A DNA stretch of 22,826 bases from Candidatus Eiseniibacteriota bacterium (lineage in GTDB: Bacteria; Eisenbacteria; RBG-16-71-46): positions 1-22,826 of the forward strand of contig JANLWX010000098.1 in the NCBI GenBank assembly GCA_031364845.1, given 5' to 3'. A program made the translations under genes and the position numbers. The notes below the pieces were generated by a model. The model was not told the DNA's origin, did no database searches, and saw nothing but the letters and a program-made list of their open reading frames with translations. Shown piece after piece: positions 2,437 to 18,760 of this stretch (its first letter is position 1; each line of letters opens with the position of its first letter).

Positions 2437-5001
2437 CTACTGCGTGACGATCATCCGCCGCGTCAGCCGTTCCCCGCCCATCGCGAGTTCATAGACGTAC
2501 ACACCGCTCGGCAGGCGTTTGCCCGAAGACAGATCCCGTCCATTCCACGCGACTTCGTGCGGACCCGACTCCAGCGCGCGATCGACCAGCGTAGAGACGC
2601 GGCGGCCGGTGACGTCGAACACGTACAGCGTGACGTGTCCCGACCGCTTGAGGTCGAAGCGGATCGACATCCGCGCCGACGCGGGATTCGGATAGCTCTG
2701 GCGCAGCACGCCGAAGCTCGAGATCGCATCCGCGGGATTCGGCACCCACGGCACATCGACCAGGTCCTGGCAGTTGTTGAACAGATCCACGTTGCGCACC
2801 ATCGGAACCGCGACCGAATTCGCGACGTCGTTGAGCGAGAAGAAGCGGTCGCCGAAGCCTTCGCACTCGAATCCGTTGTTCGTGAAGGTGTTGAGCCAGT
2901 ACTTGAAGTTCACGCTGAGTCCGGTCGAATCCGGGAACACGAGCGTGCGCGTGAACACGCCGTCACCCGCGCTCGCATCGGGCGGCGTCCCGTTGTTGAG
3001 CAGTCGCGAAGCGGCCTTCACCGGACGATCGGCATTCATCGGGAACGCGTGCGCGGCACTGGTGACGCGCGGCGAGTGGCTGCCCATCACGGCGACCGTG
3101 TCGCTCGCCGACGGCAGCGGCGTGACCGAGCCCATCTGCACCCGGAACGTGACCGCGACCGCCTTGTCCGAGATCTGGCAGCGGTTCACTCCGCGCGCCG
3201 GCAGCGTGATCGGCCCGCCCGCGCCGCCCACGGTGTCGAACACCGCGTCGTTCAGGAACACGCCGCGATTGTCCTGGCCGAGACACTCATAGACCGTGTC
3301 CACGCCCGCGCTGTCGTAGGCGACCTTCCACCCGATGTTCTTGGGAGTGCAGCGTGGAAACCGCACGCGTGCCGTGTAGATCTTGTCGCCCGAGGTCTGG
3401 TCGGGGAACACGCCGTTGTCAGCCATCACCACGCCCGGCAGGTTGAACGTGAGCGGCAGTGAGCTGCCGACCAGCCACACCTTGGTCGCGCCGACCACGT
3501 ACGGCGAGGCGGCATTGACCTTGAAGATCACATCGATCGGCTTGGTCGTGAAGTCCGCGACCTGGTCGTTGCTCCACGTGCCCGACAGCGTGCGCGTGGC
3601 GCCGCTATCGCTGCTCATGTGATAGGTGCGGTTGCTGCCGGCTTCGTACTGATCCACGCCCGGAGTGTGGCTGAACTTGTACTCGAGATCGGCCTCGGCC
3701 TTGCCTGTGATGCGGCTCTTCACGAGTCCGAACGGCACCGTCGCGGTGTAGATCGAGTCGAGGTTCGCATCCAGCATGCGGGCGTTGTCGCCGACCGAGA
3801 ACGTGAGCGGCGAGATCGATCCTTCGACGTAGAAGCTGTCGTTGGCGGCGAACTCACCCTTGCACAGCCGCAGCTTCACGTTGTTTTCGAAGTTCAGGTT
3901 CTGGATGAAGAACGAGCCCACGTTGGTGGTGCCATTGGCGACGATCGTGTTGCCCGCGATCGAACCGTCCTTCACGCCGGTGACGGTGATGTTGTTGAAC
4001 GCGGCGTTCGCCGAGATCGCCGAATTGAGCACCAGGTGTACGAGGCTCGTGTTCGCGCCATCGCGCAGGGCGCTGATGATGGTGCGGCTGACCGGTCCGG
4101 TGAACACATAATTGGCTTCGACCTCGGACGTCGTGAGGTCGACCGGCTCATCGAACAGCACGTCGATCTTCGTGGTCGCGGGAACGAACGTCTTGTTCGG
4201 GTTGAGCGTGAAGTTGACGGCGTTCGCCTGCACCACGGTGGGTGCGGTGTTGTCGACCGCGTTCTGGATCGTATACGGCAGCATGCACGTCATCTGCACC
4301 ACGGCGGCGGTGTCGAACGTGGTTCCCGACGGACGCGACATCTGGATCGCGTCACTGCATAGCGCGTCGAGCGGTCCCTTGGTGGCGCCGTTCTGCGTGA
4401 CCCAGGTCTCGAGGTTGATCACGTTGCCCGCGACCACGCGCAGCGCGGTCAGCGGGATGCGCAACTCCACGAAGCGTGAGGTGTTGGTCGCGTTGAGTGC
4501 GTTGCTGCCGGCACCCGCGGGGTTGATCAACGTGGTGCTGTCGATCCACGCCGTGCCGTTCCACTTGTAGAAGATCTCGTAGTTGAATCCGTTCTCCTCG
4601 ATGTAGATGTAGGCGTCCGGCTTGTTGGTGAGGCCGGTCCAGCCGATCTTGCGGGTGAACGGATCGTCGACGCCGCCGGCCGGTGTGTTCTTCACGTCGA
4701 ACGCGAGGCCGAGCTGAACGGTCGGGCTCGAGAAGCAGTCCTCGAAGTAGTCCCATCCGATATAGAGATAGTTCGCGTCGTTGGTGATGAACACGCGCCC
4801 GATGTCGAGCGTCGAGTCGTTCGCCGCGTCGTCGGTGCACCAGTCCTTGATCTCGGTGTCGCCGCGATCGTCCTGAAGAAGGTTCGCGGGATTGAAATCG
4901 TTTACACCGTCGACCGTGATGGTCTGCGGAACGAAGGCGAAGGCGGTGCCAGCCACCGCCATCAACCCGGTCGTGAGAAGCAGAGCTCGAAGCCATTTCA
5001 T
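2437..5001 (-). CDS. Secreted, apparently non-catalytic multidomain protein: DOMON/glucodextranase-like domain, Ig-like domain, three CBM20-like repeats with choice-of-anchor-X-like loops, FlgD-Ig/T9SS-like CTD
   Basis: GGGAGA RBS and signal peptide ending AFA/F. N-terminal ITVDG..DF...LDIGRVFITNDANYLYIG. Repeats V.F.V...V.(V/L).GS..L end in YEAGSNR / YECLGQDNR / FECEGFGDR. Loops DNGVFPDQTSGDKIYT and NNGTPPDASAGDGVFT. CTD QSYPNP...VFDVTGRRV..L...WNGRD..G..LPSGVY. Confidence 0.85.
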   Translation of the reverse strand: MKWLRALLLTTGLMAVAGTAFAFVPQTITVDGVNDFNPANLLQDDRGDTEIKDWCTDDAANDSTLDIGRVFITNDANYLYIGWDYFEDCFSSPTVQLGLAFDVKNTPAGGVDDPFTRKIGWTGLTNKPDAYIYIEENGFNYEIFYKWNGTAWIDSTTLINPAGAGSNALNATNTSRFVELRIPLTALRVVAGNVINLETWVTQNGATKGPLDALCSDAIQMSRPSGTTFDTAAVVQMTCMLPYTIQNAVDNTAPTVVQANAVNFTLNPNKTFVPATTKIDVLFDEPVDLTTSEVEANYVFTGPVSRTIISALRDGANTSLVHLVLNSAISANAAFNNITVTGVKDGSIAGNTIVANGTTNVGSFFIQNLNFENNVKLRLCKGEFAANDSFYVEGSISPLTFSVGDNARMLDANLDSIYTATVPFGLVKSRITGKAEADLEYKFSHTPGVDQYEAGSNRTYHMSSDSGATRTLSGTWSNDQVADFTTKPIDVIFKVNAASPYVVGATKVWLVGSSLPLTFNLPGVVMADNGVFPDQTSGDKIYTARVRFPRCTPKNIGWKVAYDSAGVDTVYECLGQDNRGVFLNDAVFDTVGGAGGPITLPARGVNRCQISDKAVAVTFRVQMGSVTPLPSASDTVAVMGSHSPRVTSAAHAFPMNADRPVKAASRLLNNGTPPDASAGDGVFTRTLVFPDSTGLSVNFKYWLNTFTNNGFECEGFGDRFFSLNDVANSVAVPMVRNVDLFNNCQDLVDVPWVPNPADAISSFGVLRQSYPNPASARMSIRFDLKRSGHVTLYVFDVTGRRVSTLVDRALESGPHEVAWNGRDLSSGKRLPSGVYVYELAMGGERLTRRMIVTQ

Positions 5002-5048
5002 GACACGAAGTCTCCCGGAAAAAGGAACGTTGGCGCAGGAATCGCAGT

Positions 5049-5075
5049 TTTCAGACGGATCAGATCCTTCTGAAA
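5049..5075. promoter_or_regulatory. 27-bp near-perfect palindrome (operator or 5'-UTR hairpin of the leftward transcript)
   Basis: TTTCAGA-C-GGATC-A-GATCC-T-TCTGAAA, centred on 5062, with one mismatched pair. Confidence 0.5.
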
Positions 5076-5107
5076 GAACTCATGACGTTTGCCGTCGGAG
5101 TATTTCT

Positions 5108-5117
5108 GAAACGATTC
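5108..5117. promoter_or_regulatory. Candidate LacI-family operator overlapping the -10/+1 of the leftward promoter
   Basis: GAAA-CG-ATTC is an imperfect palindrome around a central CG, the LacI-family pattern. Confidence 0.35.
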
Positions 5118-17535: not shown

Positions 17536-17599
17536 TTCGCGCGCGAACCGTCGGCCCGTCGTGCTCCGCGATTCGCGGGGCGCTGCCCGGAGCGATCAG

Positions 17600-17621
17600 C
17601 CGGCACTGAATGCAGCGCCGG
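17600..17621. terminator. Hairpin between convergent genes (possible terminator)
   Basis: CCGGCACTG [AATG] CAGCGCCGG; no U-tract on either side. Confidence 0.35.
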
Positions 17622-17650
17622 ATCGGCCGTTCACGAACCTCCGCACCGCT

Positions 17651-18760
17651 TCAGACCGCGGCGGTGGCTCCGTCGAGCGCCACTTCGGTCGTGGCATCGA
17701 AGAAGTGCAGCTTCGAGAACGCGAAGTGAAGCGGCACGTTCGCTCCGACGCTCGGCGATGCCTGCCCCGGGATGCGGGACAGCAGGATCCCGACCGGGCT
17801 CGTCCAGTGCACCAGCACTTCGTTTCCGAGCGGCTCGACGACATCGACCTGGGCGGTGATCTGCCCCGACGGCCCGGCCGGAGCGAGCGTGAGATCCTCG
17901 GGACGCACGCCGACCGTCACCGGCTTGCCACGTGCGGAGTCGAGCGCCGCACCCAGCTCGGCCGGCAGCGGCACCGTGATCCCGTTCGCGACCAGCGCGA
18001 GCGGCTGGCCGGCGGCACTCACCGATGCGGTGAAGAAGTTGATCGGCGGGCTGCCGATGAAGCCCGCCACGAACTGATTCGCCGGCCGTGAATAGAGCGT
18101 GACGGGATCGGCGATCTGTTGCATGACGCCGCGCTTGAGCACCGCGATCCGGTCGCCGAGCGTCATCGCCTCGGTCTGATCGTGGGTCACGTAGATCATG
18201 GTCGACTTGACCCGCTGGTGCAGCCGCTTGATTTCGGCCCGCATCAGCACCCGCAGCTTGGCGTCGAGATTCGACAGCGGCTCGTCGAACAGGAACACCT
18301 GCGGATCGCGCACCATCGCGCGCCCCAGTGCGACGCGCTGACGCTCGCCGCCCGACAGCTCGCGCGGGCGGCGCTCCAAGTACTGCTCGATGCCCAGCGT
18401 CTCGGCCGCGGCGCGCACGCGGCGCGTGACCTCGGCCTCGGCGGTCTTCCGCCGGCGCAATCCGAACGCCATGTTCTCGAACACCGTCATGTGCGGATAG
18501 AGCGCGTAGTTCTGGAACACCATCGCGATGTCGCGGTCCTTGGGGGCGACGTCGTTGACCACCCGGGTGCCGATCCGGATCTCGCCCTCGGTGACCTCCT
18601 CGAGGCCCGCGATCATGCGCAGCACCGTCGACTTGCCGCATCCCGAAGGCCCGACCAGTACCAGGAACTCGCCGTCGTCGATGCTCAGATTCACGCGGTC
18701 GACGGCGCGCTGGTCGCGCGCGTAGATCTTGCTGACGTTGGTGAGTTGGACGCTCGGCAT
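17651..18760 (-). CDS. malK: MalK/MsmK/UgpC-family sugar ABC transporter ATP-binding subunit
   Basis: GAAGGAG RBS. Walker A GPSGCGKS, AMVFQNYALYPHM, signature LSGGERQRVA, DEPLSNLDAKLR, YVTHDQ.EAMTLGDR, and C-terminal TOBE region GVRPED...VVEPLG. Symbol is family-level only. Confidence 0.93.
   Translation of the reverse strand: MPSVQLTNVSKIYARDQRAVDRVNLSIDDGEFLVLVGPSGCGKSTVLRMIAGLEEVTEGEIRIGTRVVNDVAPKDRDIAMVFQNYALYPHMTVFENMAFGLRRRKTAEAEVTRRVRAAAETLGIEQYLERRPRELSGGERQRVALGRAMVRDPQVFLFDEPLSNLDAKLRVLMRAEIKRLHQRVKSTMIYVTHDQTEAMTLGDRIAVLKRGVMQQIADPVTLYSRPANQFVAGFIGSPPINFFTASVSAAGQPLALVANGITVPLPAELGAALDSARGKPVTVGVRPEDLTLAPAGPSGQITAQVDVVEPLGNEVLVHWTSPVGILLSRIPGQASPSVGANVPLHFAFSKLHFFDATTEVALDGATAAV

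Follow-up and report, generated by a model that had tools for sequence, protein, structure and literature searches.

A predicted alpha-glucan utilisation locus with outer-membrane barrels of no recognisable family in Candidatus Eiseniibacteriota

We analysed a stretch of 22,826 bp from a Candidatus Eiseniibacteriota bacterium (hereafter the window), which is the whole of contig C208 in G000, a metagenome-assembled genome (MAG) of 4.6 Mb that is 97% complete. Its named homologs put it among Candidatus Eisenbacteria. The window very probably holds a locus for the utilisation of alpha-glucans (starch, glycogen, maltodextrin). This role is well supported because of the gene content, the conserved gene order, and the presence in relatives of GH77, glucan phosphorylase and ATP-binding cassette (ABC) importer genes beside the same block. 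As judged from their sequences, the outer-membrane genes of the locus fall outside the known uptake families. At its centre is a core of five genes, here labelled C, D, E, F and Fb, and the evidence tips somewhat towards this core being a capture-and-uptake route that would need neither a SusC/D pair nor LamB, in which E and F would mediate uptake. The locus appears to be a glycan utilisation locus, which is a known kind of system.

A conserved core with two unclassified barrels

Gene models were built from the list of open reading frames (ORFs) of the window, a survey of start codons and family scans. The core lies on the plus strand and begins with C (5240-6523), a predicted secreted protein of 427 amino acids (aa) with an unclassified N-terminal domain of ~300 aa and a FlgD-Ig-like C-terminal domain. 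This is followed by D (6520-7449; 309 aa), a divergent outer-membrane barrel of the PorV/PorQ superfamily that overlaps C by 4 nt; by E (7446-9017; 523 aa), a large predicted beta-barrel that fits no known family, begins with a signal peptide and ends in Phe; and by F (9017-11395; 792 aa), in which a long signal peptide precedes a carbohydrate-binding module (CBM) of family CBM48 (residues ~42-130), a linker and a barrel (~147-792) that also ends in Phe. The last core gene, Fb (11414-11830), encodes a 138-aa lipoprotein (lipobox LAGC) with one CBM48. The ORFs of the initial annotation are real, as are its overlaps at 6520, 7446, 9017, 12671 and 13462, each of 4 nt or 1 nt.

Of 20 loci surrounding F homologs, taken from 20 genomes of the phylum and picked for long contigs and family spread, 18 contained C-D-E-F-Fb in this order (tblastn with the window proteins). 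In the other two, which come from a single deep family, D, E and a portion of F were recovered. A pattern scan of species-representative genomes with the E alignment retrieved 78 loci, with the record labels Eisenbacteria (37), Cloacimonadota (16), 'Gemmatimonadota' (4), Neomarinimicrobiota (2) and Krumholzibacteriota (1), and with 18 unlabelled. Searches of these loci with hidden Markov models made from our own alignments, counting only loci with enough flanking sequence, placed D before E in 69/69, C before D in 67/67, F after E in 66/66 and Fb after F in 62/63 cases; in the sole miss (L122), Fb lies slightly farther downstream. The order of the core is invariant in all the testable loci of the 78 genomes, and extends over at least four phylum labels. 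The gene block whose synteny the initial annotation wanted compared across FCB-related MAGs is conserved.

The accessory genes around this core, whose products are described below, vary between loci. Among the 38 loci flanked on each side by 8 kb or more, single-sequence searches, which may miss distant copies, identified I in 29/38 (counted as a full-length ortholog of the CBM48-GH13 protein within the locus), B in 22/38, G in 21/38, K in 15/38, H in 14/38 and J in 0/38. Within the phylum, E was found as a single copy in 60 of 206 genomes, in 41/121 high-quality genomes, in 31/83 genera and in 12/18 families. We additionally noted an Eisenbacteria locus (G064:C6:111895-115420) in which E and F each match in three separate pieces, suggesting frameshifts or a decaying copy of the core.

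The barrels of the core could not be assigned to any family. Neither E nor the barrel part of F matched a Pfam or NCBIfam family, in agreement with the two barrels of unknown family that had been proposed for this locus. Plug, TonB_dep_Rec and LamB were matched by none of the relatives of E (0/42) or of F (0/40) at an E-value of up to 1, and by sequence the barrels did not turn out to be the divergent TonB-dependent receptors or LamB that would have argued for an ordinary system. No relative of E (0/42) matched any outer-membrane family, and the profile of E retrieved nothing from the PDB sequences at an E-value of up to 1.

These negative results extend beyond the window. The TonB_dep_Rec model PF00593, which did not match E, F or their 82 relatives, identifies 15 receptors elsewhere in G000 at 40-128 bits, none of them on the window contig. 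The LamB model PF02264 had no match in the window, in G000 or in the 82 relatives, and the SusD_RagB model PF07980, which in a control detects SusD in B. thetaiotaomicron, had no match in the window or in the 97%-complete genome. Judged by eye only, neither E nor F carries a TonB box. Thus, the earlier statement that no TonB-box or plug receptor, SusD or LamB is recognisable was upheld in the window, and for SusD and LamB the absence is genome-wide.

Confident AlphaFold2 models were obtained from alignments of 42 rows for E (predicted local distance difference test, pLDDT, 84.7; predicted template-modelling score, pTM, 0.74) and of 40 rows for F (pLDDT 86.3, pTM 0.77). Both models consist almost wholly of long antiparallel strands, with well over twenty strands predicted in each, and run to the terminal Phe. 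The first barrel strand of E begins at residue 22, and its best matches among PDB folds were the usher pores FimD (Z 17.5) and PapC (Z 17.3), over 365 residues with a root-mean-square deviation (rmsd) of 5.4-5.7 and 9% identity, and MtrB (Z 15.7), with 365-384 residues aligned across the three; receptor, AlgE and porin barrels came next, at Z 12-15. The barrel of F (147-792) aligned to the barrel part only of TonB-dependent receptors, namely FyuA (Z 15.9), Cir (Z 15.8) and the SusC-like BT1762 (Z 15.8), and of FimD (Z 15.1); over residues 146-676 it also aligned to a sucrose porin (Z 13.0). The likeness of F to receptor barrels (Z ~16, rmsd 4.1-6.5) is not stronger than that to ushers or Occ porins. 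Foldseek template-modelling (TM) scores were low for both barrels (0.2-0.5), with maltoporin listed for E at TM 0.27-0.31. There is no plug-sized domain ahead of the barrel in the model of F, in which residues 42-130 fold as a CBM48 and the barrel starts at ~147. Going by these models, E and F are large barrels of no recognisable family, with no plug ahead of the barrel.

E, F and G are each single copy in G000, and we found no paralogs of the module for other substrates in that genome. The E family comprises 190 clusters at an E-value of up to 0.001 among 1.84 billion cluster representatives. In a set of 30 distant relatives of E, picked from 150 listed, 28 had no Pfam match, one had an N-terminal CsgG-like stretch and one a sub-threshold ACOX match. 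We rejected the idea that E and F are paralogs of one another, as their comparison (hhalign probability 22% over 51 columns near the C-termini) established no homology.

Predicted glucan-binding modules, enzymes and operon context

We identified CBM48/AMPK1_CBM modules above the Pfam cut-off in F (one), Fb (one), H (two) and I (two), and all the CBM48 matches found in G000 with the queries used fall in this window. Co-matches to X25, CBM20 and CBM53 overlie the same modules. In F, the module scored 54.1 bits with AMPK1_CBM and 45.3 bits with CBM_48, and residues ~40-135 of the model superpose on the CBM48 of amylases and of branching enzymes, at Z 11-13 with an rmsd of 1.6-2.5. N-terminal domains fused to outer-membrane barrels are periplasmic in solved cases. 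The CBM48 of F is N-terminal to its barrel, and is therefore likelier to sit in the periplasm or the lumen than to serve capture at the surface; by this analogy, it most likely faces the periplasm.

Fb is the best-conserved protein of the locus. It matches AMPK1_CBM at 29.7 bits (cut-off 26.8), and its orthologs (31 in the alignment), drawn from four phylum labels, share 41-81% identity and an invariant W68, K106, W114 and N132. Directly after its lipidated Cys stands a near-invariant, positively charged stretch, LNFIKKRLPPP, that is kept in all four phylum labels. A stretch so conserved suggests that Fb keeps a fixed contact with another protein, for which F or E would be the simplest candidates, and it looks like a protein-contact or sorting signal.

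Two further lipoprotein genes lie downstream of Fb. H (12671-13465; 264 aa, lipobox LLAGC) contains two CBM48 modules, matching AMPK1_CBM at 98 bits in two stretches, and aligns to the glycogen-binding domain of AMPK beta-1 (1z0m) with the FNxW, YK and W motifs kept; its relatives have two to four modules. The W, K, W and N positions of AMPK beta-1 are presumably the sugar-contacting residues. F, Fb, H and I are assigned to family CBM48 by profile scores above cut-off; these W/K/W/N positions are kept in the alignment to 1z0m and are invariant in the 31 Fb orthologs. G (11835-12674, although its start may be 11865) encodes a probable lipoprotein of ~279 aa, with a CarboxypepD_reg match at an E-value of 0.0014 and no CBM match above threshold. 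The profile of the G family, from which L037 and L041 were left out for in-frame stops in their tblastn spans, matches the NOMO Ig domain (E-value 1.9e-8), and comparison with the Fb family showed a distant resemblance to CBM48 along one stretch (28 columns, hhalign probability 87%). The initial annotation had counted three CBM lipoproteins in the locus but did not spell out Fb; Fb and H are CBM48 lipoproteins, and G probably is one too.

The enzyme gene of the operon, I (13462-16227, plus strand), encodes a 921-aa protein with a type I signal peptide, two CBM48 modules, an Alpha-amylase_N domain (32.7 bits), a GH13 domain (PF00128, 224 bits) and a C-domain, confirming the exported GH13 that had been expected here. 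It matches the PDB entries 1sma (maltogenic amylase, E-value 3.7e-110), 1j0h, 1bvz and 1ea9 at E-values of 1e-103 to 1e-110, and SusA (9fyz) at 2.6e-34. Its translation includes DIVYNH, GLRLD, GELWG and DSHD, which we take to be the four conserved regions of GH13. I is accordingly placed, as a predicted enzyme, in the neopullulanase, maltogenic amylase and cyclomaltodextrinase group. Unlike I, typical members of this group are not known to be exported or to have two CBM48 modules.

K (17651-18760, minus strand, convergent with the operon) is a 369-aa ABC ATPase of the MalK/UgpC/MsiK type, and so corresponds to the MalK-type ATPase that had been noted beside the operon. It scored 483 bits with the UgpC-subfamily model NF008653 (cut-off 432) and 395 bits with the MalK model NF008233 (cut-off 568), along with OB_MalK (49.9 bits) and TOBE_2 (38.6 bits), and by these scores is a CUT1 ATPase of UgpC/MalK type, not a MalK equivalog. 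K is the sole full-length match of its type in G000 and therefore probably serves several importers. Elsewhere in the genome, a binding protein and two permeases are encoded beside a GH13 fragment and a protein with a C-terminal domain (CTD) on the 8.4-kb contig C68, and a GH77 is encoded on contig C215.

GH13 fragments stand at the starts of two contigs of G000, C68 (1-814, minus strand) and C144 (298-861, plus strand), and cover model positions 1-95 and 153-358, one range each. They may be a single gene split by the assembly, which would join the contig of the ABC importer to C144.

In low-GC relatives, whose genes can be assigned without ambiguity, the core is embedded in more complete sugar operons. 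The Neomarinimicrobiota locus L131 encodes, in one direction, a GH77, a glucan phosphorylase, a binding-protein/permease fusion, a permease and MalK, and then C, D, E, F and Fb, after which come a CBM48 protein, a CBM48-GH13 and a GH57-like protein with X25, CBM48 and dockerin domains. In the Cloacimonadota loci L124 and L142, the core is accompanied by the binding-protein/permease fusion, by CTD proteins and by the CBM48-GH13. A Pfam scan revealed no TonB-dependent receptor among the 34 ORFs of these three loci, and none was seen in 36 syntenic loci compared with the window's proteins.

The GH57-like protein ends in a type I dockerin in L131 (17027-20425) and in a type IX secretion system (T9SS) tail in L124 (17564-21202), so that this enzyme slot uses different surface-display signals in the two loci. 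We additionally observed that SBP_bac_1/8 and BPD_transp_1 are fused in one frame of 732-785 aa in all three relatives (L131:3809-6007, L124:625-2913 and L142:3092-5449), a tethered binding protein that is unusual for a diderm.

Predicted secreted proteins, PorV-like barrels and flanking genes

Signal-peptide-like N-termini were read from the translations of all the proteins from B to J, as were the lipoboxes of Fb and H and the probable one of G. The locus begins with B (2437-5001, minus strand), a predicted secreted protein of 854 aa that starts with a signal peptide and ends in a T9SS type A CTD. Pfam and NCBIfam scans of B yielded TIGR04183 (28.3 bits, cut-off 23), FlgD_ig (28.2 bits) and a choice-of-anchor X domain; it matched no PDB sequence, and no catalytic domain was recognised in it. 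The look-alikes of B retrieved by a language model, which provide a lead only, are CTD proteins with CBM20 or CBM26 (score 0.83), and we regard B as a candidate starch binder.

The window's own C had no Pfam or NCBIfam match, and hence no CTD or CBM match. Its 29 relatives, from which L140 was left out for an in-frame stop in its tblastn span, matched FlgD_ig (14/29), CHU_C (5/29), Por_Secre_tail (1/29) and the C-terminal part of the PorU model (5/29), and the family profile matches FlgD and the C-terminus of PorU in the PDB. In the language-model comparison the look-alikes of C are clusters that combine CBM9 with a CTD, a lead towards a CBM9-like head. The scores of the look-alikes of B and C span 0.83-0.89. 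The initial description of CTD-bearing carbohydrate-binding proteins therefore holds for the CTD of B and, at the level of the family, for that of C, while their carbohydrate binding is suggested by look-alikes only.

Both of the PorV-like barrels proposed for the locus, D and J, have weak matches to PorV/PorQ proteins. The window copy of D matches NF052325 (E-value 2.9e-11) and, along an N-terminal stretch only, NF033709 (35.4 bits, cut-off 90). The profile of 32 D orthologs matches PorV (6h3i_F, E-value 1.4e-9) at both ends of the protein, and all 32 members of the family match PorV_fam (best E-value 6.1e-22). By these comparisons D belongs to the PorV/PorQ superfamily, and is not an ortholog of PorV or PorQ. 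J (16324-17535, plus strand; 403 aa), inserted between I and K, is a probable PorV-family paralog that matches PorV_fam at an E-value of 6.5e-7, below the cut-off. Its closest paralogs lie on contig C94 and on contig C186, the latter being the canonical PorV that adjoins PorU, to which J is 29% identical over residues 9-400. J was absent from related loci in each of three comparisons (0/20, 0/16 and 0/38), and is therefore specific to this genome's copy of the locus.

A complete T9SS is encoded elsewhere in G000, with SprA on contig C67 (564 bits) and PorU and PorV on contig C186 (479 and 187 bits). We additionally identified at least nine PorV-family genes above cut-off. In dozens of ORFs, the final ~80-100 residues match the tail end of the PorU model. 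The T9SS-like parts of the locus had initially been taken for secretion machinery, a view that did not survive, as SprA, PorU and PorV lie outside the window. D and J are probably PorV-like anchors, not secretion machinery, with D best read as an anchor for C.

On three contigs of G000, PorV-family paralogs above cut-off lie 1-4 kb from genes for TonB-dependent receptors. The pairs are at 4488-5894 and 9296-10144 on C60, 8837-9892 and 13548-14471 on C114, and 3398-4708 and 5304-6191 on C9. In this phylum, PorV-like barrels may routinely belong to loci for nutrient uptake.

B and C are divergent, and are separated by a spacer of 238 bp (5002-5239) that is presumed to be regulatory; this B(-)/C(+) layout recurs in many Eisenbacteria loci. 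The divergent promoter pair that had been read into the spacer was not recovered. A consensus scan placed a single sigma-70-like site in it, on the minus strand (5142-5114), and the three promoter-like sites found in positions 1-20000 of the window compare with 2.0 +/- 1.4 expected by chance; terminator-like sites in the same scan numbered 9, against 12.0 expected. The G+C content of the window is even (0.61-0.69). A search of sequencing runs listed DNA runs from freshwater and other sediment metagenomes and no RNA run.

The locus is flanked by two genes that fall outside this finding. A (582-2342, minus strand) encodes a PQQ-type glucose/sorbosone dehydrogenase with a T9SS tail (Por_Secre_tail TIGR04183, 23.0 bits against a cut-off of 23), and N (20819-21787, plus strand), 2 kb beyond K, encodes a protein of the 3-keto-disaccharide hydrolase (DUF1080) type that carries a signal peptide. 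An oxidative sugar route beside the glucan locus is possible. No synteny of A and N was seen in the related loci.

A proposed uptake route, its alternatives and known systems

In the route that we propose, B and C would be exported by the T9SS and would both hold glucan at the cell surface, with C docked via its divergent CTD on D, as PorZ is on PorQ. Glucan chains or large maltodextrins would then pass through E, F or both. On the periplasmic side, the CBM48 modules of F, Fb and H (perhaps also G), and the two of I, would bind the incoming chain, and this binding would bias its movement inward without energy from TonB. The chain would be degraded by the neopullulanase-like I, yielding maltose and short dextrins. 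These products would be taken up by an ABC importer encoded elsewhere and powered by K, for which the binding protein and two permeases of contig C68 are candidates, and would be processed in the cytoplasm by the GH77 of contig C215. That these parts amount to a third kind of outer-membrane glycan import machine, common to Eisenbacteria, Krumholzibacteriota, Cloacimonadota and Neomarinimicrobiota, is a tentative suggestion to which we would give something short of even weight. Such a machine would be TonB-free and composed of two giant plug-less barrels that admit whole alpha-glucan chains, a periplasmic 'CBM48 ratchet' (the CBM48 of F, Fb and I) that pulls the chain inward, and a T9SS-delivered binder, docked on a PorV-like barrel, that feeds it in from the surface. 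The third architecture of the initial annotation was retained as far as it concerns a conserved alpha-glucan locus with neither SusC/D nor LamB, and was given up as far as it included T9SS machinery.

Several observations weigh against uptake through the core. The folds closest to E belong to usher pores, which translocate proteins, and to MtrB, and not to sugar channels, and all the fold matches of the E and F barrels are generic (Z 12-17, rmsd 4-7). One of the 15 TonB-dependent receptors of G000 could be the true maltodextrin importer. K is missing from 23 of the 38 well-flanked loci, and its position may be incidental, because no permease or binding protein is encoded in the window and the genome has no other MalK-type ATPase. 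Carbohydrate binding by B and C is a lead from look-alike scores that are all below 0.9. Finally, the distribution of E is patchy, with presence in 60 of the 206 genomes of the phylum, and the second genome of the window's genus, at 93% completeness, yielded no E.

Four alternative explanations may be set against these data. E, F or both might be export or assembly devices of the usher or Slam type for Fb, H, G or the GH13, with sugar uptake through a receptor or porin encoded elsewhere. The usher folds FimD (Z 17.5) and PapC (Z 17.3), which are pores of 24 strands, and MtrB (Z 15.7), which encloses a protein, would fit such a role, as would a function of LNFIKKRLPPP as a targeting or threading signal, the lack of a T9SS tail on I, and the 15 receptors elsewhere in G000. 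However, the fold matches are generic (rmsd 5.4-5.7 and 9% identity for FimD and PapC), there is no chaperone or usher accessory domain, the surface enzyme of the relatives already has its own export signal (T9SS tail or dockerin), and no TonB-dependent receptor was seen in the 36 loci compared with the window proteins or in the 34 scanned ORFs of three of the relatives. We consider this explanation unlikely, if worth keeping in mind. Less probable still is that the core is a surface adhesion scaffold (an 'amylosome') that tethers cells to starch granules or glycogen and organises the enzymes, with the barrels as mere anchors. Such a scaffold would account for the wealth of binding modules and the scarcity of enzymes, counted as seven CBM48 modules against one GH13, and for the dockerin of the GH57-like protein in L131, and there is a precedent for a PorV-like anchor that holds a CTD protein. 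Nevertheless E and F, each with well over 20 predicted strands, are far bigger than an anchor requires, the CBM48 of F stands on what is the periplasmic side in solved proteins, and the operon link in L131 to an ABC importer, MalK, GH77 and phosphorylase points to uptake.

It is very improbable that the locus serves another polymer, with CBM48-like modules whose ligand is not alpha-glucan. CBM48 and AMPK1_CBM are broad families, and G, B and C are candidate binders; but the positions aligned with the presumed sugar contacts of AMPK beta-1 are kept, X25, CBM20 and CBM53 co-match on the same modules, and the enzymes encoded alongside are of the GH13, GH57-like, GH77 and glucan phosphorylase types. 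We give hardly any credence to E and F being highly divergent TonB-dependent receptors or maltoporins of an ordinary Sus-like or Mal-like system. The barrel of F does align to FyuA (Z 15.9), BT1762 and Cir (both Z 15.8) and in part to a sucrose porin (Z 13.0), and maltoporin is in the Foldseek list for E (TM 0.27-0.31). Against this, none of the 40 relatives of F and 42 of E match Plug, TonB_dep_Rec or LamB, and the profile of E finds nothing in the PDB. The N-terminal domain of F is a CBM48 and its alignments begin past the receptor plugs, the barrel of E starts at residue 22, the true receptors of G000 score 40-128 bits with PF00593, and the genome has no SusD or LamB.

Uptake of alpha-glucan through the core, which we favour, can be compared with two well-described systems. 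The Sus system of Bacteroides consists of SusCDEFG with SusA and SusB, and takes up its products across the inner membrane by a carrier of the major facilitator superfamily (MFS). The locus resembles it in having predicted surface binders with starch CBMs, CBM lipoproteins (like SusE and SusF), a periplasmic neopullulanase-type GH13 (I, compared with SusA) and a gene for an outer-membrane conduit in mid-locus; in relatives, a separately exported enzyme of endo type, the GH57-like protein with a T9SS tail, fills the slot of SusG. In contrast, the locus has no SusC (no plug or TonB_dep_Rec signature) and the genome no SusD, and its candidate conduits are the two barrels without a family, of which one carries a fused CBM48. 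The surface proteins of the locus are predicted T9SS cargo, not lipoproteins, and the importer would be of the ABC type, whereas that of Sus is an MFS carrier.

The enterobacterial maltose system comprises LamB, MalE, MalFGK2, MalS, MalQ and MalP. Its counterparts are the MalK-type ATPase K and, in L131, the binding protein, permeases, GH77 (MalQ-like) and phosphorylase (MalP-like), with the exported GH13 in the role of MalS; the uptake proposed here would also be independent of TonB. However, the locus has no LamB, E and F are much larger than the 18-strand maltoporin and have no detectable sequence similarity to it, and the CBM48 lipoproteins and T9SS cargo of the locus have no counterpart in the maltose system.

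The attachment sub-complexes of the T9SS of Porphyromonas gingivalis, PorU:PorV and PorZ:PorQ, are described in a published account (PMC5562754). D and C resemble these pairs in that D is in the PorV/PorQ superfamily and is translationally coupled to C, which has a FlgD-Ig-like CTD. They differ in that D reaches 35 bits against a cut-off of 90, lies in a sugar-utilisation operon and not in a secretion locus, and is coupled to a protein without sortase or PorZ-like domains, whose binding to D we infer. With ushers and MtrB, E shares its best folds, which are all large barrels with well over twenty strands, whereas the locus has no N-terminal, plug or C-terminal usher domains, and no chaperone or cytochrome partner. 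This similarity appears to be one at the level of 'large barrel' only. We found no published description of this gene set in a literature search limited to PMC and bioRxiv texts.

For the uptake of polysaccharides across the outer membrane there are two models, TonB-powered pairs of the SusC/D type and passive specific porins such as LamB. The locus has neither of these where the gene context would lead one to expect one. If E and F are the conduit, they would represent a new solution for the transit of polymers across the outer membrane, and parts of T9SS type (CTD cargo and a PorV-like barrel) would have been built into a device for nutrient uptake. The related genes are currently annotated as 'hypothetical' or as 'glycogen-binding domain-containing protein', and their recognition as parts of such a locus would aid the reading of carbon turnover in Cloacimonadota, whose records here include MAGs from groundwater, lakes and sediment, in Marinimicrobia of the ocean, and in Eisenbacteria of soils and sediments.

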